Virus record (IMG/VR): IMGVR_UViG_3300025598_000072
Coordinates: 1-41,365 of that record
DNA length: 41,365 bases
Source: a virus
Taxonomy: Duplodnaviria > Caudoviricetes
Strand: one strand, 5' to 3'
The position numbers and the translations under genes were made by a program. The notes under the pieces are model-generated. The model ran no database searches, had not been told where the DNA came from, and worked only from the letters and a program-made list of their open reading frames with translations. This document shows positions 12,973 through 40,158 of the stretch, piece after piece; within the stretch, counting starts at the first letter, position 1, and each line of letters starts with the position of its first letter.

Positions 12973-15714
12973 ATGCCAATCGATCAAAATAATTTACCCG
13001 GATCAACAACAGGATCTCAAAATACACAGGGAAATACAGTACCTAATCAACAACAGCCGGCTACACAACAACAACCGGCTACACAACAACAACCAGCTAC
13101 ACAACAATCACCGGCAGCTAATAAACCGTTAGTTCCGCCTACACAGCAGAAAGCACAGATGCCTGCTAATATACCTGCGCCTGATTATGCTAAACATATT
13201 GAATTATTAAAATCAATACTTAGTAACATGGTAGCCGGCAGATCGGGGGTTGAAAGAACTAGATTTTTGATAACAGGCGATACCGGACTAGGTAAAACTA
13301 GTTTTGTTAGTCAATTAGGAAGAATGCTAGGTATGGGCACTATGATTATCGAAGTCCCCCATTTGGTAGAAGAAAATTTAATTAATATCCCATATATTGT
13401 TATAGACCACAACGGAGTCAAACATGACGGGCATACTCAAGTAGCTAAAGAAAGATCGAAATATAAACTAGTACAAGCGGAATCGAGTCTAGTTACTGAA
13501 ATTGATAAACTAACTAAAGTACCAGATGACCAATACGATAATCATCTAAAAAATCTAGGACATTATGAAAAAGGGCTTTTAGAAGCTTATATAGAAAAAT
13601 ATTCAACTAAAAAGCTTTATGAAGCTAGAAAAAAGTGGGATAGAATATTATTCATAGATGAGTATTTTAGAACTACAACTAAAACTATAAGAACCTTATT
13701 AAGAGGAATATTAAATGGTCAAATCGGCAATGACCCTATTCCTCCCAAAACTTATCCGATTTATGCTTCGAACATGGTAGATCAATCAGGAGCACTAGAA
13801 CAACCGGAGAGTTACCATGCATATGCGCCGCAAGATTTTGATGCTCCTACTTTTGGAAATTGGTTATATTATACAGTTGCTGAAGGTGTAGGAAAGAACA
13901 TTCATTTTAAACCAGAAGTTATAGATGCTTTCATTAAAAATATGAAAGACGAACATGTCAGCATCAACGACGTTATAAGAACTAGCCCACGTCGGTGGAG
14001 TGAAATACTTTTCTATTTGAATAATATGTTTCCATTTAAAAAAGGAAGCGATGATCTAGATATAGCTTATAGTCATATTAAGGCTCAGTTTGAAAATCAA
14101 GAAAGAACTCTATCAGGCGGGTTTGAAGTATTACAAAACATATTAAAAGACCTTGCAATTGCAAGTGGTATGGATCCATCTTTCAAACAGCTTTCACCGG
14201 ATAAATGGAGAACTGTTTTAAACAACGTAGTTATGAACGCTATAGAGATCGGTTCTTCTAAAAAATATGTTCCGGTTATTCAAGGTGAGCCAGGAATCGG
14301 TAAAACTGCGATCGTTGGAAAACTTGAAGCAGATCGATATGAAGGCGATGGAACTGGGTTCAATTTGAGAACTGCAGTAGTAAATTGCACTACAATTCAT
14401 CCTGACGATATGGTCGGAATCCCTCATTCGGAAGATGTAGAAACTGGCAATCGAATTAAGAAAGTAACAGAATTTAGTAAACCTTTGTTGTATGATAAAA
14501 TTCATAACTTATTAAAATCAGCAGTTGAAGAATATAAAAATCAATTACTTGAGAGGGAACAAGCAGGTGAATTACAAGGAAGAACTGCTAAACAAGTTTA
14601 TGAAGACTGGGAAGATCAAAAATATAAATTTGCCATTTTATTTGACGAAATTAACCGTGTTAAAGATATAAGAGTTTTTAACAGCCTTAGAAAATTAATC
14701 TTAACTAAGGAGTTTAATGGAAAATATAAATTAGATCCCGGAACCGTTGTTATCGGAACAATGAACCCCGGCGATAGCCAAACTATGGAACTGACCGACC
14801 ACTTTAGAGATGCTATCGAAATTATACATTCAACAGCGAATTGGAAAGAATTTATCGAATTTATGAGATCTGTGATTTTCCCACAAACAGCAAAATCAGA
14901 ATATAAACCTTCATCTTATGCATTAGATATTGGTAAAAACTTTCTCGAAAAATTACCTACTGCTGATTTTATTACTCGAGAAAAGAAACCAGAAAAAGAA
15001 TTTCATTGGGCAGCTGGCAGCAGCGGAATTGAGATAAGAGTCGACCCGAGAGCTTTACACCATATGTATGAAGACCTCGTAGCGTTAATGTCTCTTGAAA
15101 TTGAAAGCATGGAAGAACGGGGAGAGTTTGAACCTGAAAATATAGAAGAAATTAAATCAAGTCTTACAAAAGACGCAGTTAAAGTCTGTAAACCATTCCT
15201 AACTAAAAAATTTACAGATATGGGAATGTCCGGTGCAGGACCTAATTTTTTAAATTCTTTTCAAAACTACATAGAAGATATTATTAATGAAAGTATATCA
15301 ATTAAAAATACTAAAGAAACTGATCTAGGAAGTATCTTAGATCGGTTTATTAACGGAGAGAGCAAGTCCTTAGCTAATGTAGAAATGCACGGCTATATGT
15401 CAAGATTCGATCCAGCTACATTTAATGTAGAGTTCGAAAGGTATTTAGACAAACTATACGAAGACTCAGGAGCGGATTTTAATAAATTTACTCAACAAGT
15501 TCTTAAAATTTTAAAAAGTGTAAACGAAGGAGTAGATACATTAAAATGGTCTTATGAAGCATTAAACAACTTTAATAAACCGATAGAAGATATATTAGAA
15601 CATATATTAAAACCAGAATATTCAAAATGGAATAAAGACCCGCATAGTGCTGAATTAGAACACATCGCTAGTTTTTGGATCGAGGTACTTAAACTTACAG
15701 GAGCCTCGGGCTAA
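12973..15714 (+). CDS. Tandem double AAA+ ATPase (MoxR/dynein-related clade)
   Basis: Two modules: GDTGLGKT/ILFIDE/ASN and GEPGIGKT/ILFDEINR/GTMNPGD. Confidence 0.85.
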   Translation: MPIDQNNLPGSTTGSQNTQGNTVPNQQQPATQQQPATQQQPATQQSPAANKPLVPPTQQKAQMPANIPAPDYAKHIELLKSILSNMVAGRSGVERTRFLITGDTGLGKTSFVSQLGRMLGMGTMIIEVPHLVEENLINIPYIVIDHNGVKHDGHTQVAKERSKYKLVQAESSLVTEIDKLTKVPDDQYDNHLKNLGHYEKGLLEAYIEKYSTKKLYEARKKWDRILFIDEYFRTTTKTIRTLLRGILNGQIGNDPIPPKTYPIYASNMVDQSGALEQPESYHAYAPQDFDAPTFGNWLYYTVAEGVGKNIHFKPEVIDAFIKNMKDEHVSINDVIRTSPRRWSEILFYLNNMFPFKKGSDDLDIAYSHIKAQFENQERTLSGGFEVLQNILKDLAIASGMDPSFKQLSPDKWRTVLNNVVMNAIEIGSSKKYVPVIQGEPGIGKTAIVGKLEADRYEGDGTGFNLRTAVVNCTTIHPDDMVGIPHSEDVETGNRIKKVTEFSKPLLYDKIHNLLKSAVEEYKNQLLEREQAGELQGRTAKQVYEDWEDQKYKFAILFDEINRVKDIRVFNSLRKLILTKEFNGKYKLDPGTVVIGTMNPGDSQTMELTDHFRDAIEIIHSTANWKEFIEFMRSVIFPQTAKSEYKPSSYALDIGKNFLEKLPTADFITREKKPEKEFHWAAGSSGIEIRVDPRALHHMYEDLVALMSLEIESMEERGEFEPENIEEIKSSLTKDAVKVCKPFLTKKFTDMGMSGAGPNFLNSFQNYIEDIINESISIKNTKETDLGSILDRFINGESKSLANVEMHGYMSRFDPATFNVEFERYLDKLYEDSGADFNKFTQQVLKILKSVNEGVDTLKWSYEALNNFNKPIEDILEHILKPEYSKWNKDPHSAELEHIASFWIEVLKLTGASG
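13048..13107 (+). repeat. 18-bp coding tandem repeat (QQQPAT x3)
   Basis: caacaacarccrgctaca units. Confidence 0.85.
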
Positions 15715-15715
15715 T

Positions 15716-16885
15716 ATGAGATTCTTCGAATTTAGAAATATAATTAAAGAAGCAAGGTTTGGATTGAGATCGGAAAAAGGAGAGGTTCCTTTTAGAACTT
15801 CTAAAACAGATGATCCTCATATTCTAGATGCTATTAATAAAATAGCTCAAGATACTGGCAGCTCAGTAAATGACATGTTAGAAACTTTGAAAGTCGAACA
15901 GGAAATGACTGAACTGTTAGGACAGTATAGTAAACTTTTACATGATGTTGCAACTAAAAATGTAGGAGAACACGCAATTTGGAACATTGTCGACGCTATT
16001 CCTACTGAGAAATTAAAGTCTTCTTTTGATGAACTTACATTTATTAGATTGTGTCAAGAAATATCAAAGAGATCAAAAGGGTTTTTCCCTTTGAAATCAG
16101 TTGATAAAAATTTACATAAAAAATTAATTAGCGAACTTCACCCTATATTAATACCATCTACATATAAACAATATCAACAGTACAATAATTTAGTCGATAC
16201 TGCCGCTGTATCACAAGACGGAAACTTTTTCTTTAATGTTCATTTCATGGAAAAGTTAATTTATTTCGGTGATACTATAAATGTTAAACCTACAAGACCT
16301 ATATATGTGTCAAATGGGGGTGACATTCCGGACAGTTATTGTTATATTGAATTTTTAATAATGCATGAACTCTGTCACTTTATATTCGGTGATATCGGAA
16401 ACTCTCTCAAATATAAACAATATGAACACAGGTTACATAATCTCGCACAAGATTTTAGAATTAACTACGAATTAACTAAGTTAGGGTATACTCCGATTCC
16501 TTTGGGAATGTTTAGTGATGATTTAAATGCTGATAGATTTTCAAATTATATAAAATTACTTCGATCTGTTGATGAAGAAGTAAAAAAGCTACCTCCGTGG
16601 TTACGCACATGGTTTGAAAAAACTAATAGTCATGATCAACACACTGATCCTAAGAATCCCGATACTCAGGGCGGTGGGCCTAATATTCCTTGGAAACCAG
16701 CACTCGGCGATATCGTGTTAATAGCTATTAAAGGAGAATTCGGCAGAGTAGTAGGTATTAAACCTGGCGATATGTATGAAGTGATACCGGTTTCTATCCC
16801 AGAATTACAACAAGAATATCCCGGAATTAAAGTAGGAACAGCACAAGATATAAAAGAAAGCGATAAAAAAGGTAATCGTACATGA
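15716..16885 (+). CDS. HExxH metallopeptidase-like protein (DUF2201 N-terminal-like) with C-terminal SH3/KOW-like barrel
   Basis: DTAAVS...FFFN, FLIMHELCH, HNLAQDFRIN, HDQH. Confidence 0.75.
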   Translation: MRFFEFRNIIKEARFGLRSEKGEVPFRTSKTDDPHILDAINKIAQDTGSSVNDMLETLKVEQEMTELLGQYSKLLHDVATKNVGEHAIWNIVDAIPTEKLKSSFDELTFIRLCQEISKRSKGFFPLKSVDKNLHKKLISELHPILIPSTYKQYQQYNNLVDTAAVSQDGNFFFNVHFMEKLIYFGDTINVKPTRPIYVSNGGDIPDSYCYIEFLIMHELCHFIFGDIGNSLKYKQYEHRLHNLAQDFRINYELTKLGYTPIPLGMFSDDLNADRFSNYIKLLRSVDEEVKKLPPWLRTWFEKTNSHDQHTDPKNPDTQGGGPNIPWKPALGDIVLIAIKGEFGRVVGIKPGDMYEVIPVSIPELQQEYPGIKVGTAQDIKESDKKGNRT

Positions 16886-17247
16886 TTAATAAAAAAGTAT
16901 ATCCATTGAGGTACTTAGCACCTATAGAGCAAAAACCAGAAGACCCAGGAACTCCGCCTCCACCACCGCCTCCACCACCTCCAGGTGGAAGTGGATGTAA
17001 ATATCAAGTAGGGCATCTGATAAAAAATAAAAGAACAGGCGCAGTTGGGGAAATAATAGAAGTTGATGATCAATGTCGATATAAAATACGAGAGCTAACA
17101 TATGATGATATTATGGACATTAAAGATGGTTTAAAAATAACAGTAGATGATGTTCCTATTTCAGATCGTGATTCAATCTTAATACCTGTAGAAGAATCGA
17201 GATTTAAAGAATTGTTAAATAAATTAATTAAAGGAGGAACGTTATGA
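16882..17247 (+). CDS. Polyproline linker + SH3/KOW-like small protein
   Basis: P10 run, YQVGHLIKNKRTGAVGEIIEV; ATGA coupling at both ends. Confidence 0.7.
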   Translation: MINKKVYPLRYLAPIEQKPEDPGTPPPPPPPPPPGGSGCKYQVGHLIKNKRTGAVGEIIEVDDQCRYKIRELTYDDIMDIKDGLKITVDDVPISDRDSILIPVEESRFKELLNKLIKGGTL

Positions 17248-18293
17248 CTTGGTGGAATCAAGATGATTGCGAACCATGGCCTACTCCTCCTCCCCCTCCG
17301 CCTAAGGGCAAAGAGGCGCCTCCCGGGGATGGGCCTTCAGGACCACCTCCCCCGGGACCTCCTCCTACAGTATCTGGCGGAGATGGATCTAATTCTGAAG
17401 ATAACAAACCTGACCCTGAAGATGACGATTTAGAAAAAGAAGATGAATTAGAGAAAAAGGATCGAGAAAAATGGGAAAAAATTAAAGAAAAATTAAAACA
17501 ATCACAAGGTGATGACTTAGAAGATAAAGACGAAGATGATCGAAAGCCTGAAATACAAGGAACTCAACAGAGTCAACAAATATCAACAAACTATAAACCT
17601 AAACTTCCTTGGCAAAAAATTATAAAGAGCTTTGTAAGCGGCGCGACTGTTGTAGATCTCAGTTATACCAAACCTGCTAAAAGAAATGCCGGGGCTCCGG
17701 ATGAGTTAGATATGACAGGCAGCAGCGTTGTTAGACCGGGATATAAAGAACTCGATCCGATCTATAAAATGTGTTTTGTTGTCGATACTTCTGGTAGTAT
17801 GTACGGAGTGGTTGATAAGGCATTAATCGAAGTACAAAAACTATTATCAGTTCTTGCAAAAGATGCTGAACCTCGATTTGGATTAGTATTCTTTACAGAA
17901 TCTGCTTACTACTATTCTTGTAACTTACAAAAAGGAGAAGCAGTTAGAGTTAATAGCTTTGATGAACTCGCAAACCCTCCCAAAAATGCAGCAAAATTAA
18001 ATTTGAAAGATGTTCTTAATTCACAATATAGTGGCGGAACTGTGTTTACAAGATCAATGGCTGATCAATTAAAAAAATTATTGAAAAAAGATTATAATGT
18101 ATGTATGTTTACAGATGAAGGTATTTTAGAAAATTGGGGAAAAGATAATAATTGGCTAAACTTTTTATCTGTCTATACTACCGCAGGTAAGCACTTATAC
18201 TTAATTTTAAAAAATAATGATAACTTTAACGACCTAGTAAAACAAATGGACGTAGATCCCCAAAAGATGCCTGAAAACATTACTCATTTATAA
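17244..18293 (+). CDS. vWA domain protein (DUF2201 C-terminal-like) with Pro-rich/acidic N-terminus
   Basis: W-x-x-II...SYTKPAKR, MIDAS DTSGSM, GGT, FTDE. Confidence 0.85.
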   Translation: MTWWNQDDCEPWPTPPPPPPKGKEAPPGDGPSGPPPPGPPPTVSGGDGSNSEDNKPDPEDDDLEKEDELEKKDREKWEKIKEKLKQSQGDDLEDKDEDDRKPEIQGTQQSQQISTNYKPKLPWQKIIKSFVSGATVVDLSYTKPAKRNAGAPDELDMTGSSVVRPGYKELDPIYKMCFVVDTSGSMYGVVDKALIEVQKLLSVLAKDAEPRFGLVFFTESAYYYSCNLQKGEAVRVNSFDELANPPKNAAKLNLKDVLNSQYSGGTVFTRSMADQLKKLLKKDYNVCMFTDEGILENWGKDNNWLNFLSVYTTAGKHLYLILKNNDNFNDLVKQMDVDPQKMPENITHL

Positions 18294-21048: not shown

Positions 21049-21285
21049 GTGAATCTCTGCAACATAAAAAACAATAAACAAGCAATCATTGAATCTGTAC
21101 ACGGCGAACAAGCACAACAACTACAAGAAATCGGGTTCGTTCCGGGAGCTAGAGTAACTGTTATAGCTCGAGCACCATTTAATGGCCCTATAGCTGTCCG
21201 TGTTGATAACTCTACATTTGCTCTGAGAATCGAAGAAGCTGAACAAATAAATATTCATAATCATGAAGATCTCTCAACTACTTAA
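21049..21285 (+). CDS. feoA: FeoA-family protein
   Basis: LQEIGFVPGARVTVIARAPFNGPIAVRVDNSTFALRIEEAEQI is the FeoA signature; GTG start. Confidence 0.85.
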   Translation: MNLCNIKNNKQAIIESVHGEQAQQLQEIGFVPGARVTVIARAPFNGPIAVRVDNSTFALRIEEAEQINIHNHEDLSTT

Positions 21286-21790
21286 CGAATCAATATGGAA
21301 ATATCCTAATGATTTTATTTTAAGACAAATCGAATCAACTCAACATGAGTTAGATGAAATTGAAGATCAAATAAAAGAGAGTACAGAATGGATCGAAAAT
21401 CTAAGAGCAGCTCATGAAGATTTTATAGAATTTTTGATGAGCCATTACCATTTATCTATAAACTGGAATCGGAGTGGCTTTCTTGACGAAGGTACATTAT
21501 ATGATGGTTACGATAATGTTAAGGCCACTGATATTCTTTGGACCGTTTATGATTCCCCTATCCTTACTATTATAATATTGATGTACACTGTCGAACAAGA
21601 ACCAGGACAAGGATACGACAGATTTAGAAAATTTATGAACTGTAGTCTATACACTGATAATCCTAAATTAGAAAAGGCTATCACCACAGCTCTAAGTCTT
21701 ATTAAACCACCCGGATATGGTACTATGCCTCCCGACAAGGCATTGGCAATTTCTAAAGAACAGATCATACGATTGGGGCTCCCCGCCTAA
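21263..21790 (+). CDS. Divergent member of the MKIxQ paralog family
   Basis: MKISQLLNES...YPNDFILRQIE matches the array at 36-40 kb; ATAAATA 21247-21253. Confidence 0.7.
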   Translation: MKISQLLNESIWKYPNDFILRQIESTQHELDEIEDQIKESTEWIENLRAAHEDFIEFLMSHYHLSINWNRSGFLDEGTLYDGYDNVKATDILWTVYDSPILTIIILMYTVEQEPGQGYDRFRKFMNCSLYTDNPKLEKAITTALSLIKPPGYGTMPPDKALAISKEQIIRLGLPA

Positions 21791-22545: not shown

Positions 22546-23106
22546 ATGGAATATTATATAGGAAAAAGTAAAATTACTTACGGCTTATTTAGCTATGGAT
22601 GTGAAAATATCTTAATTAAAGAAGCAGGGGAAGGAAAAAATTTGACTATAGGAAATTTTTGTTCTATTGCTCCCCCATTAACAGTATTTTTAGGAGCTGA
22701 ACATAGATCAGATTGGATTACGACATATCCATTTGGACATATTCATGAATCAGAATTAGGAACAGAACGTTTTATAGGTCACCCACATAGTAAAGGAAAT
22801 GTAATTATAGGTCATGATGTATGGATAGGATACGATGTCACTATTATGAGTGGCGTTAGCATAGGCGATGGCGCAATTATCGGATCTAAAAGTTTAGTGA
22901 CTAAAGATGTCTTACCCTATCAAATCGTAGGAGGAAACCCTGCTAGAACTATACGAAATAGATTTGGCGAAGATATTATAAAACTATTATTAAAATTAAA
23001 ATGGTGGGACTTGCCTATCGAAGAAATTAAAAAAATTAAAAATATATTGAGCAATACTCCCTCTGTCGAAATCATTACCGATCTGATAAAACAATATAGA
23101 AATTAA
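22546..23106 (+). CDS. CatB/Vat-like hexapeptide-repeat O-acetyltransferase
   Basis: IGNFCSIA, TTYPF, IGHDVWIG, IGDGAIIG, VTKDV, VGGNPA, LKWWD. Confidence 0.88.
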   Translation: MEYYIGKSKITYGLFSYGCENILIKEAGEGKNLTIGNFCSIAPPLTVFLGAEHRSDWITTYPFGHIHESELGTERFIGHPHSKGNVIIGHDVWIGYDVTIMSGVSIGDGAIIGSKSLVTKDVLPYQIVGGNPARTIRNRFGEDIIKLLLKLKWWDLPIEEIKKIKNILSNTPSVEIITDLIKQYRN

Positions 23107-24017
23107 TTCGAACTAATAACAGGATCCGTGACTACCATTTGAGGCCCTACATTGGTATATCTAATCATGAAATTACCACTATGTAAATCTATGGTATGGT
23201 TTAAACGAACAATTAATTGAAACGCTTGTACTAACTTACGATCACGTATATTACTATAATCACCCCGGCGAACTGCTTGAGATAACACTTTCACTAACTC
23301 AGTCCAAATACTATAACTATGATGATCCGTAGGCAAATCAATAGGCGTGATAAAAATACGATTGGCAAAACTGGCAAATAAATCTGGATGAATATGCGGT
23401 ACAGCTTCATACGCATCATACAATCTTTCCATGGTATAGGCAAATCGTATGCCTTTACTGGTTTTAAAAGAATCAGCTACATAAATCCTGGGCAAATAGG
23501 GATTGTTACTCATTAACGGCTGTATGGCACGTACATACTGATAATAGGCATTACTGGTAGGATCAGTGGGCTTCCGCTCAACTTTGACTATTAATGCAGG
23601 ATCACTACTATGCTCAAATACTACAGCTTCTACTCCATCACCGATATTGACTCCTAACGGTAAACGGTCTAACCAAGCTTGCTCCGCTGCTTCAGATCTG
23701 TTACGAGATAAACGCTGCAAAAACGATGGCTTGGCAGCGGCAGGCTGCTGCGTTTGTATAATGTCATCTCGATCTTCATCTAATCTATAACGCCCTACTC
23801 GATAGGTGTTCTTGGTACCCTTCACTGTCTGCCCTGTAACTAAAGCACGGCTAGCTGCTTTAGAATCAACTCCCTTTCTTGCAGCCCACGCTTCTAAATC
23901 CATTACTACATACTGCTTATGCTTTTTGCTTAAACGAGAAGTATTGTTAGGATCACATACTTGTATGAGATACCCATTATGATCTCGATCAATAATCTTA
24001 AACTCATATATGCGCAT
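23103..24017 (-). CDS. Protein kinase-like fold protein
   Basis: IGDGVEAVVF, IVKVE, LPRIY, YTMERL, DLHSGNFM, VTDP; ATAAATA 24025-24031. Confidence 0.75.
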   Translation of the reverse strand: MRIYEFKIIDRDHNGYLIQVCDPNNTSRLSKKHKQYVVMDLEAWAARKGVDSKAASRALVTGQTVKGTKNTYRVGRYRLDEDRDDIIQTQQPAAAKPSFLQRLSRNRSEAAEQAWLDRLPLGVNIGDGVEAVVFEHSSDPALIVKVERKPTDPTSNAYYQYVRAIQPLMSNNPYLPRIYVADSFKTSKGIRFAYTMERLYDAYEAVPHIHPDLFASFANRIFITPIDLPTDHHSYSIWTELVKVLSQAVRRGDYSNIRDRKLVQAFQLIVRLNHTIDLHSGNFMIRYTNVGPQMVVTDPVISSN

Positions 24018-24086: not shown

Positions 24087-24365
24087 CTAGAAAATAATAT
24101 CATTGTCAACAAAATATCCCTCAATGATATTACACACTAACTGCGGATGACAATGCACATACTCACTACGTACCGTGAATCTATCCTTTAATATGCTTAA
24201 TATCCTACTCTCATGTAATCGATCAGGTATACTATACGTTTTTAAAAAATAACATTGAGGATTGGCGGTCCTATATGCTCGAAGCCTATTGTCAGGATTG
24301 CCCGTAATACCTAACTTACAACGGTGCGGCTTGTCTGGATCTACCATGATGTAATAGTAAAGCAT
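24087..24365 (-). CDS. GIY-YIG-like (T5orf172/MUG113) protein
   Basis: YYYIM...CKLGITGNPDNRLRAYRTANP...E...SEY; likely start 24365. Confidence 0.7.
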   Translation of the reverse strand: MLYYYIMVDPDKPHRCKLGITGNPDNRLRAYRTANPQCYFLKTYSIPDRLHESRILSILKDRFTVRSEYVHCHPQLVCNIIEGYFVDNDIIF

Positions 24366-24621
24366 ATGTTTATTTACTGTGAGGGGCATAGTACCCTAAA
24401 AATCTGCGCTGCAAAAAATAAAAGGTCTGGAGATCTCGGCCCCTGGTGATTTTTAACCCCATGGTGGGAAAAATCGCATGCCGAAAATTTTTTTAAATGC
24501 AAGCTTTTTATTTTATATGCCCCCCACTATATTGCTTGCAAAAGTTTTAAAAGCATGCTTAAGCATGCTTATTTTTTACACGCGCTGTAACACATGCTGT
24601 TACGCATAGCAAGCAAAATAA

Positions 24622-24646
24622 AATAGGGGGACGCAGCCCCCCTATT
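24622..24646. other. Hairpin AATAGGGGG-ACGCAGC-CCCCCTATT containing GGGAC
   Basis: 9-bp perfect stem near the left edge of the depleted zone. Confidence 0.75.
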
Positions 24647-24755
24647 GCATGCACGCTACACACACGCACTGCTTGCATATTGCAGTACACTGTGCTAGCG
24701 CATGCAGCGCACTAGCATATTGTATGCACATTGTACAATTAAATTTAAGTAATAT

Positions 24756-24834
24756 AACTTTGCATAACTTAACAAAACTATGCTTGCATTAAGTGTGCTA
24801 TATGCTAGCATTAGCAACGTAGCAATAACGCTAC
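24756..24834 (+). promoter_or_regulatory. Early promoter cassette copy 1
   Basis: AACTTTGCATAACTTAACAAAA-TTGCAT-16-TAGCAT (TGn extended)-GTAGC aataac GCTAC hairpin. Confidence 0.8.
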
Positions 24835-24855
24835 ATAACACACAGCAGTAACAGT

Positions 24856-25203
24856 ATGCAAACGCAACAACAAGCAGCAACGCAAGCACAAACGCAAACA
24901 AAGCGCAAGTACACTAAGCGCAAACAGCAGTTGCGTTTAGTTACTAGTGCTGCTACTACAGCAGCAGCGCAAGCAGCAGCAAACGCTACTAACAATGCTA
25001 CAGCAAAGCGCAACAGCGCATTGCACACGCAGCGTATGCTTAACTTTGCAACAGCGCAAAACGCAACGCAAATTAACAAAGCATTGTATACTAGCAAAGT
25101 GCGTTATTTGCAAGCATGTATTGCACATAACACAGCAATGCAGCAGTTGCAAGCGCAAATTACTGCACACTTGCTTAAAGTAGCAGTAGTATTACAGTAT
25201 TAA
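24856..25203 (+). CDS. Early protein lacking D/E/G/P/W (115 aa, basic)
   Basis: Framed by promoter cassette and terminator. Confidence 0.65.
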   Translation: MQTQQQAATQAQTQTKRKYTKRKQQLRLVTSAATTAAAQAAANATNNATAKRNSALHTQRMLNFATAQNATQINKALYTSKVRYLQACIAHNTAMQQLQAQITAHLLKVAVVLQY

Positions 25204-25240
25204 AATAAAGCGCACACAGTAACTACAACACTATACAGTT

Positions 25241-25274
25241 GCACACGCTATGCAAGTAGCGTGTGCTTTTTTTT
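25241..25274 (+). terminator. Rho-independent terminator
   Basis: GCACACGCTA-TGCAAG-TAGCGTGTGC-T8. Confidence 0.85.
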
Positions 25275-25311
25275 GCGCATAACAAACACAGCAGCGCACG
25301 CAGCGCACGCA

Positions 25312-25334
25312 GTATAGAGGGACGTTTAAACTAT
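25312..25334 (+). repeat. GTATAGAGGGACGTTTAAACTAT copy 1 (copy 2 at 26258-26280)
   Basis: Exact 23-bp repeat after each terminator. Confidence 0.9.
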
Positions 25335-25506
25335 ATGCGTTGTAGTTTTAAGTAGCAAGTTACACACAGCAGCGCACGCAGCGCACGCGCTGCACAGGGA
25401 CGCAGCGTCCCAGTTTTGTGCGCTATAAAACTTGTATAGTTTTTGTATGTATAAAAAAATGTGTATGTATAACGTCCCTGTGCTAACGTGTGCAGCGCGT
25501 ATAAAA

Positions 25507-25584
25507 AACTTTGCATAACTTAACAAAAAAACGCTTGTATTACTTGCGCGTTATGCTAAACTAAAAAACGTAGCAGTACGCTAC
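25507..25584 (+). promoter_or_regulatory. Early promoter cassette copy 2
   Basis: Same architecture: TTGTAT...TGcTAAACT, GTAGC/GCTAC hairpin. Confidence 0.8.
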
Positions 25585-25605
25585 GCAACACAAAAAGCAC
25601 AGCAT

Positions 25606-26172
25606 ATGCAACAACAGCAACAACAAGTAGCGCAGCAAGTAGCAGCGCTATTAGCAAACACAAGCGTAACTTTTGCTTGTGTACAGTACACAACGCAAGT
25701 AGCAACAGCAGCAGCGCATAAGCACGTAAACATACAAAAGCACACAGTTGCTAACGTGCAATTGTTTGCAAACATTAACGCTGCTACAAGCGTATTTGCT
25801 AACGCTGTAAAGCGTAATGCACAGCAACATGCTAACTGCGCAGCAGCAGTTGCAAACTTTACAGCACAGCAAAATTACTTTATGCACACTAACTGCTACA
25901 GCATTGTGCAGCATAAAAACAACAGTAATTTGTACTTGTATTGCATTTACAACAATGCGCGTAGTTACTACACAATTAACAACGTGCGTGCTACTAAGCA
26001 GCAAGTTGCACAATACTTAACAGCAAGCGCAGCACAGCAGTTACTTAACGCTAGCAACGTAACGCACAACAAAACGCACAACGTAACGCATAGCGTTGTA
26101 GTGCGTACAATTGCTTTGCACAACATACAGCGCATTAAAGCAAAGCGTAAACAGTTACAGTTTGCAGCGTAA
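25606..26172 (+). CDS. Early protein lacking D/E/G/P/W (188 aa)
   Basis: Framed by promoter and terminator; globular-looking hydrophobic pattern (YSIVQHK, LYLYCIY, VRTIAL). Confidence 0.75.
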   Translation: MQQQQQQVAQQVAALLANTSVTFACVQYTTQVATAAAHKHVNIQKHTVANVQLFANINAATSVFANAVKRNAQQHANCAAAVANFTAQQNYFMHTNCYSIVQHKNNSNLYLYCIYNNARSYYTINNVRATKQQVAQYLTASAAQQLLNASNVTHNKTHNVTHSVVVRTIALHNIQRIKAKRKQLQFAA

Positions 26173-26193
26173 CTAAGCGCACAGCAACACGCA

Positions 26194-26226
26194 GCACACG
26201 CTATGCAAATAGCGTGTGTTTTTTTT
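26194..26226 (+). terminator. Rho-independent terminator (near copy of 25241)
   Basis: GCACACGCTA-TGCAAA-TAGCGTGTGT-T7. Confidence 0.85.
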
Positions 26227-26398
26227 GCGCGTAACAAACACAAACACAATAGCAGTTGTATAGAGGGACGTTTAAACTATGCGCGTTGTAGTTTTACAAG
26301 TAGCAGCAGCGTGCGCTGTACAGAGGGACGCAGCGTGTATGTATAATGTTAACGCCCCCCTCTATTGTGCGCGTGCGTGCTGTTACAGCGTGTGTTTA

Positions 26399-26477
26399 AA
26401 CTTTGCAAAACTTAACAAAAATGTGCTTGCGTTAGTTGTGCATTGTGCTATTATTAGCAACGTAGCAATAACGCTAC
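26399..26477 (+). promoter_or_regulatory. Early promoter cassette copy 3
   Basis: TTGCGT-16-TATTAT with TG extension; 5' hairpin. Confidence 0.8.
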
Positions 26478-26496
26478 AAACACAAAGTAACTTAAA

Positions 26497-26676
26497 ATGC
26501 ATATTGCAACTAATATTTACTTAAAAAATACAGCGCAAGTAACGCAACAACAAATTGCGTTGTTTAACGCGCTGCAACAGCAAGTTAACGCACTTGTAGC
26601 ACAGTACGCTAATATTATTAGCGACGACGCTGTAAGCGCGTACATTTGCGACGACGCTAACGTAGCGTTGTATTAA
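26497..26676 (+). CDS. 59-aa protein missed by ORF track; paralog of 27236-27427
   Basis: MHIATNIYLK...QQQIALFNALQQQVNALVAQY...YICDDANVALY. Confidence 0.7.
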   Translation: MHIATNIYLKNTAQVTQQQIALFNALQQQVNALVAQYANIISDDAVSAYICDDANVALY

Positions 26677-26737
26677 CTTGTAACAGCGTGCACAGTAGCG
26701 TATACTGTGCACGCACTTAACAAAAAGTAGTAATATT

Positions 26738-26971
26738 ATGCATACACTGGAAGTAAATTATCCGCTTGCGTTGTATATTAACAACGCAGACATTGATAGC
26801 GACATTATTGCTGCTGTAGCTGTAGCTAGCAACGGCAGTGGCGCGGGTTTTGGCATACGCGACATTACGTTTACGTTTAACACTGCTGCTGCTGCTAATG
26901 CTGCTGCTGCGCGTGCTAAAACTGTGCATAACAGCATAACGTGCAGCGTGTACGCTAACAGCTACGCTTAA
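26738..26971 (+). CDS. Hypothetical protein (GSGAGFGIRD)
   Basis: ORF downstream of cassette 3; GR steps mostly confined to D/E/G codons. Confidence 0.65.
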   Translation: MHTLEVNYPLALYINNADIDSDIIAAVAVASNGSGAGFGIRDITFTFNTAAAANAAAARAKTVHNSITCSVYANSYA

Positions 26972-27132
26972 ACGCTAGCAGCTAGTTTGCACATGCAAGC
27001 TAGCTGCTGTTACACAGCGGGGCATTAACGTGCGTGCGTAGTTGTTTATGCTACGCACGCACAGCAACTTAAGCAAAGTATAGAGGGGCCGCGTCCCTCT
27101 AAAATACTTTGCATTTTTTTGCTGTGTAGTTT

Positions 27133-27211
27133 AACTTTGCATAACTTAACAAAAATGTGCTTGCGTTAGTTGTGCATTGTGCTATTATTAGCAACGTAGC
27201 AATAACGCTAC
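27133..27211 (+). promoter_or_regulatory. Early promoter cassette copy 4
   Basis: Nearly identical to copy 3. Confidence 0.8.
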
Positions 27212-27235
27212 GCATTACTACAAAGTAGTTACACA

Positions 27236-27427
27236 ATGCAAATACAACTTACAATTGCGCTTAACAACAAAAACAGCAAAAAAGTTGCAATGCAGCAACT
27301 TATGCTATTTAAAAAACTAGAGCAGTATGCTAATATGCTTGTAGAGCAGCATACTGACGCTGTTAACAGCAAAGTGCAAATAGTTAAAGTACACGTATAC
27401 GACGACGCTAATAATTTAATAGTTTAA
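27236..27427 (+). CDS. 63-aa protein; paralog of 26497-26676
   Basis: QQLMLFKKLEQYANMLVEQH...VYDDANN. Confidence 0.7.
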   Translation: MQIQLTIALNNKNSKKVAMQQLMLFKKLEQYANMLVEQHTDAVNSKVQIVKVHVYDDANNLIV

Positions 27428-28890: not shown

Positions 28891-28989
28891 CGGTGTACTG
28901 ATTGCATAGACGCAAGTAGCGCAGCGGGACGCTGCGCTACTTTTTCCTAAGTTGCGGCCCCGGATGTAAACGCTTACATTCGCTAGATA

Positions 28990-29066
28990 AACTTTGCGTA
29001 ACTTAACAAAACTATACTTGTGTTAAGTGTGCTGTATGCTATTATTAGCAACGTAGCAGTTGCTAC
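28990..29066 (+). promoter_or_regulatory. Early promoter cassette copy 5
   Basis: AACTTTGCGTAACTTAACAAAA...TGcTATTAT...GTAGC agtt GCTAC. Confidence 0.8.
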
Positions 29067-29089
29067 ATAACACAGCATAGGACACAACA

Positions 29090-29347
29090 ATGTTTAACAA
29101 TATTACAGATGTGCAAAAAGAGCTTATAGCAAGCGCAGCAACGCAAAACAACGGGCTTGTTGCAGTTATTTTTGCATTAGCGTTTGCAGCAGGTGACTTT
29201 GATACTGTGTATTACATTTATAGCAGCAAGGAACTGTTTACGCTTGCAAACTTTGCAAACGACGAAGAAATTTACGCAAAAGCAGCAGCACTAGGCGACG
29301 CGCTGCTTACGTTTGCGCGTGCAGAAGCTGAGCACACACTAAACTAA
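29090..29347 (+). CDS. Hypothetical protein
   Basis: AGGA RBS after cassette 5. Confidence 0.7.
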   Translation: MFNNITDVQKELIASAATQNNGLVAVIFALAFAAGDFDTVYYIYSSKELFTLANFANDEEIYAKAAALGDALLTFARAEAEHTLN

Positions 29348-29411
29348 CAATTACACGCAGCGTGCGTAGTGTTATCTACGCACGTTGCATTGCACAATAA
29401 GGAAGCACAAC

Positions 29412-29651
29412 ATGAACACATTGGCTGCTAGTATGACAACTGCTGCTAAATGCAAAAAGATATTGCGCACAGCGAAACTGATGCGCAAGTGGGAACAGCG
29501 TGCTACTAATGCTAGGCTGACACTAGCAGCACTTGAGCAGCAAGTAGCACACGGCAAACTAAAACGCACAGCACAGGCACGAACAGCAAACATAGCGCGT
29601 ACTGCTGAAATTAAAGCCTTGGAATACAAAAAACGCTTACTTGAGCACTGA
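29412..29651 (+). CDS. Basic helical hypothetical protein
   Basis: AAGGA RBS, ATG 29412. Confidence 0.65.
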   Translation: MNTLAASMTTAAKCKKILRTAKLMRKWEQRATNARLTLAALEQQVAHGKLKRTAQARTANIARTAEIKALEYKKRLLEH

Positions 29652-29717
29652 GGCAGAAATTGTTTAGCGGGACGCGGCCCCTCTACTGTAAACTGTTAGC
29701 AGTTTTTTGCATTTTAA

Positions 29718-29796
29718 AACTTTACTTAACTTAACAAAAAAACACTTGCACTACTTGCGCTGTATGCTACTATTAACAACGTAGCAATAACGCTAC
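29718..29796 (+). promoter_or_regulatory. Early promoter cassette copy 6
   Basis: TTGCAC-16-TACTAT with TG extension; 5' hairpin. Confidence 0.8.
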
Positions 29797-29819
29797 GCAC
29801 AACTTAAAAGTTAACAACT

Positions 29820-30125
29820 ATGCTTGCTGTTATTAATGTTGAAAGCGATGACAATGAAACTACTACGCAGTATGCGTGCAACTTTACTGTAGAATGCGAC
29901 GGTAGCAGCATTTGGGCTGACACAACAGGGCGCAAAGTACATGTTACTGCTATTAGTGTACACGAATGCAATGGCTACAAAAGCATTTATGTAACACACG
30001 ACAGCAACTGGCACATTTATACTGACAAGGGCTTTGTTGCTGCTATTAGCAACGCATTGGGCTACGCTGTAGACTTTACAGAGCAGGGTATGCAGGAAGA
30101 CAACTTTGCAAGTATGGAAGCGTAA
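29820..30125 (+). CDS. Hypothetical protein (WHIYTDKGF, FTEQGMQ)
   Basis: ORF directly after cassette 6. Confidence 0.75.
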   Translation: MLAVINVESDDNETTTQYACNFTVECDGSSIWADTTGRKVHVTAISVHECNGYKSIYVTHDSNWHIYTDKGFVAAISNALGYAVDFTEQGMQEDNFASMEA

Positions 30126-34566: not shown

Positions 34567-34842
34567 TTAGTCAACCAGTTCTCGTACACGAAACTCACGT
34601 ATAATGCCGCCCTGTGCAGATCCCCCCACAGGCAGACATCGTTTAGCACGCTCTGCATCCGCTTGCGTTGCATAAACTACTACAGGTTGCGTTGCATAAA
34701 CTACTACAGGTTGCGTTGCATAAACTACTACAGGTTGCGTTGCATAAACTACTACAGGTTGCGTTGCATAAACTACTACAGGATCCCAACGACTGCCCGC
34801 AGTCTTGAACTCGATCAGTCGCTCTAACACCCAATTAGTCAT
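34567..34842 (-). CDS. Hypothetical protein with PVVVYATQ x5
   Basis: Coupled to upstream ORF. Confidence 0.6.
   Translation of the reverse strand: MTNWVLERLIEFKTAGSRWDPVVVYATQPVVVYATQPVVVYATQPVVVYATQPVVVYATQADAERAKRCLPVGGSAQGGIIREFRVRELVD
34663..34782. repeat. Perfect 24-bp tandem repeat x5
   Basis: TTGCGTTGCATAAACTACTACAGG. Confidence 0.95.
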
Positions 34843-36084: not shown

Positions 36085-36438
36085 TTAGGGTATTTTGCGT
36101 AGATGTATTCTCAAGAAGGTTTCGCCGTTATATTGTTGTTGTATCACGGCTATTTCTGCGGAGTCATTGTATGCTGTGTAGACCAGTATCAGATCTTCTT
36201 CTGTATCGGGGAATTTAAAGTTTTTATAGTATATGCTTTTTTCCCAATCTGGAGTTGTGGGGAACAGTTTGGGATTTATTTTTAATAGATGAGCGGGAGT
36301 TATTTCGGGTGTGTTCACGTATCTAGTATAGACATCGGAGTATTCGTCTAAAGTGCCTTCGATTTGTTCTAGTATATAGTCGTTAGGCCAGTATTTAGGG
36401 TTTATAGTATTTTCTTTTAGTATTTGATTAATTTTCAT
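36085..36438 (-). CDS. MKIxQ family paralog 9
   Basis: MKINQILKEN, YWPNDYILEQIE, PDWEKSIY, LILVY. Confidence 0.8.
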   Translation of the reverse strand: MKINQILKENTINPKYWPNDYILEQIEGTLDEYSDVYTRYVNTPEITPAHLLKINPKLFPTTPDWEKSIYYKNFKFPDTEEDLILVYTAYNDSAEIAVIQQQYNGETFLRIHLRKIP

Positions 36439-36863
36439 ATGATTTTATCTTCTTTTGCTTTTTCTATTTGTTTGTTGTACCAATCATAACTAGAGAACGC
36501 CATATAGATACTCTGTATATGCCTATAAGTAGAGGGAATACCATCGTTCCATCTAGTGATTATAGCCAGACTTGAATCGTCTATGCCCGGATATACCAAT
36601 AGGAGACGGTTGACGATGCCAAGACTATGGTAAGCGGATCTATCCCAATCTGGAGTTGGGTTAAATTTGAAAATCTTAGTGTATTTTTCCAATTTCCCCG
36701 CCACTAGATTTATAACTTCTTGATCGGATTTAAGGGCATGGTAGTTTTTCGATTTATTTTCGAAATCTTCAAATTCTATAACTTCGATCTGCTCGAGTGT
36801 ATATTGATTAGGAGTATAATCAGGGTCTATAGTATTTTCTTTAAGTATTTGGGAGATTTTCAT
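36435..36863 (-). CDS. MKIxQ family paralog 8
   Basis: True start MKISQILKEN at 36863; PDWDRSAY, LLLVYPG. Confidence 0.8.
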   Translation of the reverse strand: MKISQILKENTIDPDYTPNQYTLEQIEVIEFEDFENKSKNYHALKSDQEVINLVAGKLEKYTKIFKFNPTPDWDRSAYHSLGIVNRLLLVYPGIDDSSLAIITRWNDGIPSTYRHIQSIYMAFSSYDWYNKQIEKAKEDKII

Positions 36864-36874
36864 AGTTATTCTTT

Positions 36875-37333
36875 TTATGATCCTATTTTTGCCGAAAGCC
36901 ATTTTCGATTAAAGCGTATATTCACTGAAATTCTCTTATACTTTTCATTTGTATAATTTCTAACAGTTTCATAATGAATCACTGCCATTTCTGCACCGTG
37001 ATCTTTACTCGGGTATACCAGAATTAGATTTTCTTGAGTAAACAGGCCATCTGGTTGGTATACGCTAAGATCCCAATCGGGTTGGGTATTAATTTCAAAT
37101 TGCTTCGCTAGATCGTTAACTATTTCAGGATTAGGAGCGGTTACTGATTTGTTGTAAACGTTGCTTTTATCTAATCTAAGTATTATAAATTCTGAATTTT
37201 CATGTTGAAATTTAGATTCTGTATCGTGAAATTGTGATTCTGGTACTTCAATCTGACTGAGTATATAATCACTAGGCCAATACATTAGATCTATTGTGTT
37301 GGAATTTTCTTTTATGAGTTGGGAGATTTTCAT
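36875..37333 (-). CDS. MKIxQ family paralog 7
   Basis: MKISQLIKEN, YWPSDYILSQIE, PDWDLSVY. Confidence 0.8.
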   Translation of the reverse strand: MKISQLIKENSNTIDLMYWPSDYILSQIEVPESQFHDTESKFQHENSEFIILRLDKSNVYNKSVTAPNPEIVNDLAKQFEINTQPDWDLSVYQPDGLFTQENLILVYPSKDHGAEMAVIHYETVRNYTNEKYKRISVNIRFNRKWLSAKIGS

Positions 37334-37776
37334 TAATCGTCGTCCCTTGAATCTGTTTCATAGTATTTTATTGCTTGATCTCGCATTTCTTTATTATCGA
37401 ACAAAAAGTAAGAGTTTTCCCGGATCTTGTCCGGTTCTTGCATGATCATCACAATAAAATAGACATTATTTCCTGTATAGACCAGTTCTAGTAGATTAAC
37501 ATATGGTGATATAGCGTAGATGCTCTCATCCCAGTCGGGATTGAGATTTATGTTATATTTTTCAAATATTATTTCTGTAAATTTATGGTCGTATTTGTGA
37601 TCAAGATTTATAAGAATTTTTTTAGACATATCATAGTATGGACGAGAGTAATCTTTAAGGTCGATCTCTATTTGATCCAGTATATAATCATTAGGCCATT
37701 GATTAATTGGGTGGCCTAATATTTTTTTTATTGGGGGTTGTCTATTGTTTTCTTTAAGTATTTGGGAGATTTTCAT
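37333..37776 (-). CDS. MKIxQ family paralog 6
   Basis: MKISQILKEN, WPNDYILDQIE, PDWDESIY. Confidence 0.8.
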   Translation of the reverse strand: MKISQILKENNRQPPIKKILGHPINQWPNDYILDQIEIDLKDYSRPYYDMSKKILINLDHKYDHKFTEIIFEKYNINLNPDWDESIYAISPYVNLLELVYTGNNVYFIVMIMQEPDKIRENSYFLFDNKEMRDQAIKYYETDSRDDD

Positions 37777-38132
37777 AAGTTATTCTCAAATCGTATTCTC
37801 AAGTCTATATTTTTATTTACATGATGTATTATAGCCAGAGTTGCTCTATGTCCTGTATAGACCAAGAAGAATTCTCCATCATAGTCAGATCGAAGGAAGG
37901 CGCTCTCGTTCCAATCGGGACTAGTGTTAATTTTATAGACATCAACGAGGGGGTCAATAGCGTTAGGAGCAACTGCTTCGGTAGTATAATCTCTCGTTCT
38001 ACCCCAATATTTTTTTAGCATATCTCGATATTCTGGTTCTGATACTTCGATTTGATCCAATATATAATCACTAGGCCAATATCGTAGATCTATAGTATTG
38101 GAATTTTCTCTAATAATTTGGGAGATTTTCAT
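37773..38132 (-). CDS. MKIxQ family paralog 5
   Basis: MKISQIIREN, YWPSDYILDQIE, PDWNESAF. Confidence 0.8.
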   Translation of the reverse strand: MKISQIIRENSNTIDLRYWPSDYILDQIEVSEPEYRDMLKKYWGRTRDYTTEAVAPNAIDPLVDVYKINTSPDWNESAFLRSDYDGEFFLVYTGHRATLAIIHHVNKNIDLRIRFENNL

Positions 38133-38515
38133 CGGTATTTGTTTCCTAGTCGCAGTTTTATCTTTAAATCATGTTCGATCTTAGGGTCTTTATAGTGCAT
38201 TACTGCTATTTCTGCTTGATCGCCTGTATAGATTATTATTAAGGCTTCTGCTTTATAGGTAAAATTAAAATCGTTAGTGTAAACGCTTTTATCCCAATCG
38301 GGGGATGTGTTAATTTTTAAGTAATTATTAAAGTTATTAACTTGATCAAGATCTAAAAAGAGGTTTCGGGAATCCGGGCCTCGGTCATCAAACCTATTAA
38401 CCATAGACATCCATTCGTTGTTAGAGACCTCGATTTGATTTAGTATGAAATCAGGGGGCCAGTAATATGGGTCTATCAAGTTAGCATGTTCTCTAATAAT
38501 TTGATTAAGTTTCAT
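38129..38515 (-). CDS. MKIxQ family paralog 4
   Basis: MKLNQIIREH, YWPPDFILNQIE, PDWDKSVY. Confidence 0.8.
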   Translation of the reverse strand: MKLNQIIREHANLIDPYYWPPDFILNQIEVSNNEWMSMVNRFDDRGPDSRNLFLDLDQVNNFNNYLKINTSPDWDKSVYTNDFNFTYKAEALIIIYTGDQAEIAVMHYKDPKIEHDLKIKLRLGNKYR

Positions 38516-38524
38516 ATATTAGTC

Positions 38525-38896
38525 CTAAAACTTATGGAAGCGTATCCAAGTATCTTTGTAGACATTCCCGCCCTCAGTAGTCACTCTATAGACGAAGACA
38601 TCTACCATTCTACCAGGATATACTAGTAGCAGCATTTGGTCACGGTCGTCTTCATAGTAGACGCATCTATCCCAATCAGGGTTGGTAATACTTATTTCGC
38701 TGTTATCTATAATCTTTTTTAGCATTTCTCGATCTTTAGGGTTATTATAGACCATAATAATATGGCCTTTTTTGTATTGATCGGCAATGTCTTGGAATTC
38801 CGTACGGGTTTGGACCTGTATTTGTCTTAGTATATAATCGTCGGGGATATAATCGAGGTCTATAGTTTGATTTTCTAGCAGTTGATTTATTTTCAT
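38525..38896 (-). CDS. MKIxQ family paralog 3
   Basis: MKINQLLEN, PDDYILRQIQ, PDWDRCVY. Confidence 0.8.
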   Translation of the reverse strand: MKINQLLENQTIDLDYIPDDYILRQIQVQTRTEFQDIADQYKKGHIIMVYNNPKDREMLKKIIDNSEISITNPDWDRCVYYEDDRDQMLLLVYPGRMVDVFVYRVTTEGGNVYKDTWIRFHKF

Positions 38897-38905
38897 TATT
38901 GTGCC

Positions 38906-39319
38906 TTAGAGGTAAAGTATCGCATGTTCCCAAGTTTTCTCTAGAAGTGGGATCGGGCCATCTAACCACATTTCACGTTCGCCTCGAAAATCGCCATCTG
39001 TGATAATAAGATTAACGCCTTGATCTCCGGGGTAGACCAATAATAAGAAATTACCTTCATCTCCGTGGAGATTTTCGCAGTAACAGCTATGATCCCAATC
39101 AGGGCTGCTGTTAATATTAAAATGTTTAAGCATATAATCTGTAAATTCTCGATCATTAGCTGTTTTACGGCTTAAAGTAAATTCGTACCATTTATTAGAA
39201 CGGTGTTGCTTCCAGATTTCGATAGCTTGATCGCTATCAACACGTATTTGATCCAATATATAGTCATTGGGCCAATATTTGAGATTTATTCTTGATTCTA
39301 ATAATTGATTTATTTTCAT
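38906..39319 (-). CDS. MKIxQ family paralog 2
   Basis: True start MKINQLLES at 39319; PDWDHSCY, LLLVYPG. Confidence 0.8.
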   Translation of the reverse strand: MKINQLLESRINLKYWPNDYILDQIRVDSDQAIEIWKQHRSNKWYEFTLSRKTANDREFTDYMLKHFNINSSPDWDHSCYCENLHGDEGNFLLLVYPGDQGVNLIITDGDFRGEREMWLDGPIPLLEKTWEHAILYL

Positions 39320-40158
39320 CAGGGAACTTCGCCGCTCCATTCTCTCCAAACATCAACTGATAGCTGGCTGTTCGTGAAATAGAAAAATGCTTCGGGACGG
39401 TGATCGTCGTTATACTTTGATATTGTTTGATCTACTATCAGATCTGCACCATCGCCCGGGTATACTAATATTAACCTACCTACATGGTCGCGTCTAACAG
39501 TATATATGCTACGATCCCAATCTGGGTCGCTGCTGATATTTGCTCGTTTAATCACATAGTCACGATAATCTATCTCACTTGCATCATCCTCATATTGATC
39601 ATAATAATTTCTAATTTCATGAAATTCTTCAGGTGTGGTCTGTATTTGACTTAATATGTAATCGTTCGGAGTCCAATTAATATCAATTAATGTAGGTGAA
39701 TGTTCTTCTTTTAAAAATTTCTCGTCATCGAATACCTGAGACAGATTGTATAGATCAGCGGCGTTACGCCAAATTCGGCTATTAGAGTGATGGAAAAAGA
39801 CCCAATGATCAATAGTGCGCATTCGATTAGTCAATACTATTAGGTCTACGTTATGATCGCCGGGATAGACTAGCAGAAGAAAATCAGTTCCATTATTGGG
39901 ATTTTTCTGATATATGCTACGTTCCCAATCCGGAGTGCCACTGATATTGAACTTTTTAACCATGTAGAGATAAAAAAGTATGTCTCTTTCATCATCGACA
40001 TCGATGGTAGACATATTCAGATAATTATTGGTATATTGATCTCCGATCTTGTCGGCTTCTTTGTAATCATCAACCGTGATTTGATCTAGAACGTAATCGT
40101 TCGGGCGATATTCGAAATCTGGAACTGTGTTTTCGTTAAGCAGTTGATGAATTTTCAT
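39319..40158 (-). CDS. MKIxQ family paralog 1 (two tandem domains)
   Basis: PNDY-L-QI / PDW-RSIY / LVYPGD each occur twice. Confidence 0.85.
   Translation of the reverse strand: MKIHQLLNENTVPDFEYRPNDYVLDQITVDDYKEADKIGDQYTNNYLNMSTIDVDDERDILFYLYMVKKFNISGTPDWERSIYQKNPNNGTDFLLLVYPGDHNVDLIVLTNRMRTIDHWVFFHHSNSRIWRNAADLYNLSQVFDDEKFLKEEHSPTLIDINWTPNDYILSQIQTTPEEFHEIRNYYDQYEDDASEIDYRDYVIKRANISSDPDWDRSIYTVRRDHVGRLILVYPGDGADLIVDQTISKYNDDHRPEAFFYFTNSQLSVDVWREWSGEVP

Follow-up and report, generated by a model that had tools for sequence, protein, structure and literature searches.

Two phage genes free of 5'-GR on both strands encode proteins written in a 15-amino-acid alphabet

Two open reading frames of 115 and 188 amino acids, found in the 41,365-nt stretch of uncultured phage DNA analysed here (the window), contain between them no Asp, Glu, Gly, Pro or Trp, which raises the question of how apparently real proteins could come to be written with only 15 distinct residues each, and of whether the restriction lies in the proteins or in the DNA. 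The absence of the five residues, claimed in a preliminary description of the locus, was borne out by counting (D0 E0 G0 P0 W0 in each ORF) and has a chance of 7e-15 in the 115-aa ORF and 7e-24 in the 188-aa ORF, taking as reference the 24.7% D+E+G+P+W of eight ordinary genes in the window. Serine is always encoded by AGY, as had also been stated (3/3 and 8/8 codons, respectively), and arginine only by CGY in both ORFs. The preliminary description named GA, GG and CC as the banned steps; all three are indeed absent, and TC is absent as well, making the set strand-symmetric. GA, GG, TC and CC number zero in any frame of the two ORFs and in the upstream, leader and terminator segments, and each gene lies in an unbroken run free of all four (Table 1), where block shuffles gave a mean longest run of ~47 nt by chance. 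Random synonymous coding of the same proteins (2000 draws) left a mean of 29 banned steps in the 115-aa ORF and 39 in the 188-aa ORF (minimum 15 and 25), compared with none observed, and thus the ban exceeds what the choice of amino acids would produce. Since GA and GG read as TC and CC on the opposite strand, the rule amounts to no 5'-GR on either strand, and therefore to proteins without Asp, Glu, Gly, Pro and Trp. The 15-residue alphabet is thus a by-product of a rule on DNA.

The ban extends beyond the coding sequence, spanning the 171 nt and 85 nt that precede the predicted -10 boxes of the two units and also covering leaders and terminators. The step TT is enriched in the two genes (42 vs 31.5 and 54 vs 36.3, respectively), CT is at its normal level, G+C is 0.42-0.44 in the island and ~0.33 in the core, and the left edge of the island is sharp, near 24,480.

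Table 1. Features of the island and of the genes downstream of it (positions in the window).
Feature	Position	Strand	Description
GA/GG/TC/CC-free run 1	24642..25317	.	676 nt
Predicted host sigma-70 promoter cassette 1	24747..24834	+	A-tract, -35 TTGCAT (24784), 16-nt spacer, TG, -10 TAGCAT, leader hairpin; no Shine-Dalgarno
115-aa gene, 15 amino acids	24856..25203	+	Q/A/T-rich N-terminus with KRKYTKRK; C-terminal 67 residues conserved
Terminator-like hairpin and T run	25241..25266	+	
Spacer between runs	25317..25480	.	Sole GA/GG/TC/CC between runs, all within GAGGGAC/GGGAC/GTCCC words; palindrome 25397-25411
GA/GG/TC/CC-free run 2	25478..26263	.	786 nt
Predicted promoter cassette 2	25498..25585	+	-35 TTGTAT (25535), 16-nt spacer, -10 TAAACT, leader hairpin; no Shine-Dalgarno
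188-aa gene, 15 amino acids	25606..26172	+	Net charge +15; predicted alpha/beta fold, Sm/SH3-like barrel core
Terminator-like hairpin and T run	26193..26220	+	
Cassettes 3 and 4; 59-, 77- and 63-aa genes	26390..27427	+	GA only within Asp/Glu codons; TC+CC 0, 2, 0
Cassettes 5 and 6; 85-, 88- and 101-aa genes	28981..30125	+	Message strand TC 0/0/0, CC 0/1/0; GA and GG back

Each ORF had been credited with its own promoter cassette and terminator. A copy of an 88-nt repeat, present six times in the window, does precede each of the two, and a hairpin with a T run follows; the promoters, however, were not listed by a consensus sigma-70 scan of the window (9 sites found vs 8.8 expected), and for this reason their function is only inferred. 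The six cassettes align on TTG.. -16 nt- TAnnnT, with -35 boxes TTGCAT, TTGTAT, TTGCGT, TTGTGT and TTGCAC and never TTGACA, and a search for the promoter pattern in 25 relatives gave a single match, with 3 mismatches. Downstream of the two genes the ban eases stepwise: GA returns first inside Asp/Glu codons only, then GG and GA appear more freely, with synonymous GA at zero in five of the six downstream genes and message-strand TC/CC staying at 0-2 per gene to position 30125.

Two further regularities were seen in the cassette region. Directly after every predicted -10 box lies a conserved leader hairpin, GTAGC-N7-GCTAC (24813-24834 and the five other cassettes). The few GG, CC, GA and TC steps between cassettes, at 24623-24646, 25317-25480, 26263-26362 and 27083-27101, cluster in GAGGGAC/GGGAC/GTCCC words, several of them palindromic; GGGAC or GTCCC occurs 13 times in 5.7 kb, compared with 9 times in the first 24 kb, and these words are possibly placed sites for a reader or for a DNA mark.

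For the 188-aa protein 389 homologs were found, with 200 representatives at 50% identity. The 45 homologous genes under full ban differ at codon positions by 0.29/0.24/0.48, and 2088 of 5145 same-residue codon pairs differ synonymously, a pattern that marks the 188-aa gene as a genuine protein-coding gene under purifying selection. Five close homologs of the 115-aa protein were found, all similarly biased, and no unbiased one; comparison of its gene with that of locus L008 over residues 49-115 gave 19 synonymous vs 6 non-synonymous codons, and with L164 6 synonymous vs 3 non-synonymous, so that it too is a conserved coding gene under purifying selection. Translation of both ORFs may be inferred from these substitution patterns. 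Two identical 151-nt pieces from one metatranscriptome run fall in the 188-aa gene and none in the 115-aa gene, in counts made without a silent-stretch control.

It had been proposed that both proteins were recoded under the DNA constraint, with D/E passing to N/Q and G/P to A/N, unless homologs in unbiased genomes were to lack the same residues. For the 188-aa protein such recoding is supported by an alignment of 249 homologs (of 269 fetched; those of 150-240 aa kept), in which D/E/G/P/W content is at least 15% in 60 and at most 2% in 89, with none in the core in 22, the 60 unbiased homologs using all five residues normally; for the 115-aa protein the five similarly biased homologs offer no such comparison. 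At the positions of the unbiased homologs the substitutions in the window protein follow the proposed directions (D>N 39%, E>Q 27%, G>N/A 31/21%, P>A 50%), with W>Y at 68%, and clean switches occur at conserved columns (P140>A, G126>N, D125>N and W91>Y). Glu is replaced mainly by Q and A, Lys being outside the top eight replacements. The replacements are conservative; the net charge is +15, whereas the unbiased homologs have a median of +2. The normal forms are the more widely spread, which suggests that the change probably ran from the normal to the reduced alphabet.

Structure prediction, suggested at the outset, gave a confident AlphaFold2 model of the 188-aa protein (pLDDT 90.5, pTM 0.83). 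Its nearest structural neighbours are WYL/Sm-like (SH3-barrel) domains, as in PafBC, BrxR, CapW, YaeO and Hfq (Z 6.1 over 79 of 188 residues, rmsd 2.6, a Z below the tool's meaningful level); unlike these domains, ~100 of its residues are insertions, and neither it nor the 115-aa protein matches a Pfam or PHROG family. Foldseek with this model gave no match in the PDB at E 0.001 and four uncharacterised phage proteins in BFVD, a search of the ESM Atlas with the unbiased homolog P0144 gave nothing above 0.84, and the 188-aa protein was unmatched in cultured phages (tblastn) and in five jumbo genomes (profile). We predict that the 188-aa product is a barrel protein, basic and able to bind nucleic acid.

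The ban was followed at the DNA level in 97 loci homologous to the 188-aa gene, reduced to 69 distinct genes by removing 4 with stops and exact duplicates, some near-identical genes remaining. It is complete in 45 of the 69. In three (L018, L234 and L239) only GG and CC are banned; here almost only G, P and W are missing (G1 P0 W0), D and E are normal, TC and GA are kept, and L018 retains TTGACA. Two genes (L208 and L211) are short mainly of TC/CC, and the remaining genes are partially banned or unbanned, the unbanned ones having TTGACA in several cases and a GGAG-like word in most. In a set of 1035 ORFs, a message-strand ban on TC/CC without one on GA/GG was found in 80 and the reverse in 15, the listed reverse cases being mostly antisense frames or borderline. 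One unbiased homolog of the 188-aa protein (L007:9992-10501) comes from a contig of 33.7 kb, where its neighbours, identified by eye, resemble genes for terminase, portal and capsid; the family is therefore not confined to jumbo phages.

The window is a fragment of a PA5oct-related uncultured jumbo phage, and the closest cultured matches to its helicase are PA5oct/Paride (48%) and Atu_ph07 (46%). In the closest long relative, G001 (helicase 81% identical), the 115-aa and 188-aa genes are under partial ban, and a cluster encodes a DpdA-like protein of 542 aa, a glycosyltransferase, FolE and QueE; the 542-aa protein has a DSGG(Y/F)Q motif and its model shows the tRNA-guanine transglycosylase (TGT) fold (Foldseek E 1.7e-5, prob 1.0). 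The enzyme cluster is also present in G019 (71%, 93% complete), where a 743-nt stretch of the minus strand (224624-225367) with two small genes and a promoter has a message without TC/CC and with GA, TTGACA and GGAG intact. The precursor genes for FolE, QueD-like protein and QueE were found in both G001 and G019, and QueC had no match in G001 or PA5oct. A DpdA-like enzyme is present in G001, G019, G002 and PA5oct, whose gp168 is an ortholog of the G001 enzyme (47%), and a homolog in Vibrio phage 2.275.O adjoins annotated queuosine genes; a review lists a deazaguanine system for PA5oct in the passage available (PMC7824862). Close relatives of the enzyme were found at 549 viral loci, and a glycosyltransferase lies in the flank of 62 of the 80 fetched. 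At ~540 aa the family is longer than known DpdA and was missed by NF041059 and PF01702, and negatives with these two models are thus uninformative. The 188-aa family had no match in 21 other DpdA-bearing contigs, which leaves just two records in which enzyme and family were seen to co-occur, one with a ban and the other without.

The rest of the window holds several genes of separate interest. A protein kinase gene (phrog_15752; 23103-24017, minus strand) and one with a T5orf172 nuclease domain (24087-24389, minus) diverge from the left edge of the island. About ten paralogs (36085-40158, minus, and 21263-21790, plus) start with MK(I/L)xQ and share the motifs YxPxDYILxQI and PDWDxSxY, and an ORF at 34567-34842 (minus) has five tandem PVVVYATQ repeats. 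A hexapeptide-repeat acetyltransferase (22546-23106, plus) presumably resembles CatB/Vat-type enzymes, and AAA+ ATPase, metallopeptidase-like and vWA genes (12973-18293, plus) match the MoxR-vWA set of group 2.2 jumbo phages.

As to the cause of the ban, a guanine modification made by the phage itself, likely through a DpdA-like enzyme, is in our view the probable driver; it would bear on two genes that are predicted to be transcribed earliest. The uncultured phage would carry the same cluster as its closest long relatives, and the enzyme would place a 7-deazaguanine mark on the G of GR, possibly with a sugar from the adjacent glycosyltransferase. The two genes would be read first by host RNA polymerase, which would read marked DNA poorly, and a mark on the template strand would cost most, because the exclusion of TC/CC from the message outlasts the rest of the ban. 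The strongest units would then have cleared both strands, at the expense of TTGACA, the Shine-Dalgarno sequence and, besides P, the residues D/E/G/W. Later genes would tolerate the mark, being transcribed from newly made DNA or by a polymerase that has been modified. The strand asymmetry of the ban is a sign of transcription, and two features favour DNA over RNA as its target: the cleared stretch upstream, which is untranscribed, and the GG-only class. The banned word also varies by lineage (GR in 45/69, GG/CC only in 3/69), as DpdA motifs do.

Cultured phages offered a comparison of avoidance with known modification. Restriction evidence from part of one study indicates modified G in GA and/or GG in PA5oct (PMC12191111), which according to another, also seen in part, needs host RNA polymerase (PMC7318152); the available LC-MS/Nanopore data place the mark of iggy strictly at GA (PMC10484667). 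The longest GR-free runs of PA5oct are 217, 149, 143, 141, 105 and 104 nt (null 70-54), one of them covering the tandem promoter ahead of a tRNA cluster, and two shorter ones, of 86 nt and 67 nt, coincide in part with the starts of ncRNA001 and ncRNA002. In iggy the codon-junction O/E is 0.61 for G|A and 0.66 for T|C, with G|G at 1.03 and C|C at 0.99; its longest GA-free run, however, falls in a Q/P/A-rich low-complexity stretch.

Several observations speak against the phage's own mark as the cause. Neither a DpdA-like gene nor FolE, QueD, QueE or QueC was seen in the 41-kb window, and long islands are missing from three carriers of the enzyme, G002, Phosso and 2.275.O (run ratios 0.70, 0.93 and 1.08, respectively), the 188-aa homolog in the complete genome of G002 being unbanned beside an enzyme cluster. 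The enzyme is therefore not sufficient for the ban; in these carriers the size or motif of the mark may differ. Early terminal-repeat genes of PA5oct are not more depleted than mid-genome ones (G|A 0.92 vs 0.75), and host polymerase does transcribe the PA5oct genome. In CAjan and 9g the signal is weak or nil (GA/TC run ratios 1.37 and 1.06), F8, in which T is reported to be modified within TG, shows no avoidance of that step (T|G 0.99), and XaC1, profiled over 320 of 349 kb, has no match to the enzyme and yet a T|C of 0.81. The literature searched yielded no measurement of deazaguanine blocking RNA polymerase.

Signals for other words were also seen. Codon-junction values of 0.77 for G|T and 0.89 for G|C in G002 and 0.66 for G|G in 2.275.O are possible traces of other modification motifs; a GY-specific ban in G002 was considered on the G|T value and rejected, the longest GY-free runs being A+T-rich and not evidently promoters. 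Phage F8 has AC/GT-free runs of 224 and 124 nt and an A|C junction value of 0.71.

Among the alternatives, a host defence that attacks DNA (an ADP-ribosyltransferase, deaminase or glycosylase) might read unmodified GR/YC, the first genes escaping it by sequence. DarT and DddA prefer TC contexts, and such a defence would account for the strand symmetry, the lineage-specific words and the carriers of a DpdA-like enzyme without islands. We consider it unlikely, as in iggy and PA5oct the banned word coincides with the mark reported for the phage itself, and the rest of the genome is unprotected. The same mark could also have another reader, with first-entering DNA kept unmarked against a modification-dependent host nuclease of the END type until phage inhibitors are made. 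Such nucleases restrict PA5oct, which encodes an inhibitor, according to the part of the study available (PMC12191111), and the two-strand ban on the first two units would follow; a nuclease would, however, be indifferent to the direction of transcription, while message-only bans on TC/CC are common in the ORF survey, and the bans are tied to promoter units with GGGAC words sitting between them, which leaves this reading improbable as well.

A ban acting on RNA, with UC/CC removed to escape Rho and GA removed to escape a CmdT-like mRNA ADP-ribosyltransferase, seems still less probable. Rho prefers YC, and of all parts of the ban the one on message-strand TC/CC persists longest. Avoidance of Rho shapes coding strands (PMC13323073) and CmdT modifies GA in single-stranded RNA (bioRxiv 2024.02.24.581662), as far as the passages available from the two papers go. 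However, the untranscribed upstream DNA is clear too and the depletion affects both strands and not the message alone; GG, TC and CC are zero and not just message GA, which G019 keeps; the GG/CC-only lineage keeps TC and GA; CT is not depleted; and two unrelated RNA readers would have to sum to an exactly self-complementary set. Erasure of the steps without selection by mutation or damage (UV photoproducts at TC/CC or deaminase hypermutation), TC and CC being C-to-T hot spots, is largely refuted and very improbable, given enriched TT with normal CT, the higher G+C of the island, the replacement of Glu mostly by Q and A with Lys outside the top eight, and the sharp left edge.

Avoidance of restriction sites is familiar in phage DNA, and the first-injected regions of T5 and T7 are site-poor. 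The ban resembles it in that a short word is selected against, chiefly within a region predicted to be early, and differs in that the word has two letters, that its loss is total and overrides the -35 box, the Shine-Dalgarno sequence and five amino acids, and that the likely target is the phage's own mark. The 7-deazaguanine modifications of DpdA phages (GA/GGC in CAjan, GA in iggy, GA and/or GG in PA5oct) likewise have two-letter, G-first, lineage-specific motifs; close relatives of this phage likewise have a TGT-fold enzyme with FolE/QueD/QueE, and iggy and PA5oct show matching avoidance. In contrast to these systems, here the motif is absent over whole genes and the proteins are rewritten, and the relatives' enzyme is longer and adjoins a glycosyltransferase. 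The passages searched in the CAjan and iggy papers do not mention motif depletion. The Rho-driven purine bias, in the part of its description available (PMC13323073), is likewise a transcription constraint that shapes codon and strand composition, but it is graded and confined to the message, whereas the ban is all-or-none and holds on both strands and in untranscribed DNA. With CmdT, as described in the passages seen, the ban shares the GA word, and loss of the Shine-Dalgarno sequence would be protective, but GG, TC, CC and template-only bans would be unexplained; those passages call escape by removal of such short sites implausible (bioRxiv 2024.02.24.581662), and both genes here have removed them. 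A literature search, with subscription journals and supplements outside its reach, found no description of such a ban.

The ban is thus a new, extreme variant of motif avoidance. The present analysis contributes the substitution table, the GG-only class of the 188-aa gene, a TGT fold for the enzyme, and two controls in culture, PA5oct and iggy, exceptions included. A broader reading, on which we are evenly divided, is that in phages that modify guanine every marked site exacts a toll when the injected genome is transcribed by host RNA polymerase, that in this clade the price has been the rewriting of entire promoters and proteins, that the missing two-letter word gives the motif of each phage from sequence alone (GR, GG-only or GA-only), and that the 188-aa family would be a natural series of one fold in 20, 17 and 15 amino acids.

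A phage is thus able to purge a two-letter word from entire genes, and selection on DNA can strip a conserved protein, predicted to be globular, of both acidic residues and of Gly, Pro and Trp. The 188-aa family provides a natural series of reduced alphabets that has hundreds of members. Should the phage's own mark be the cause, hypermodification would have a transcription cost of which the literature searched held no description, modification motifs would be predictable from sequence, and the question would be testable in the cultured phages PA5oct and iggy.
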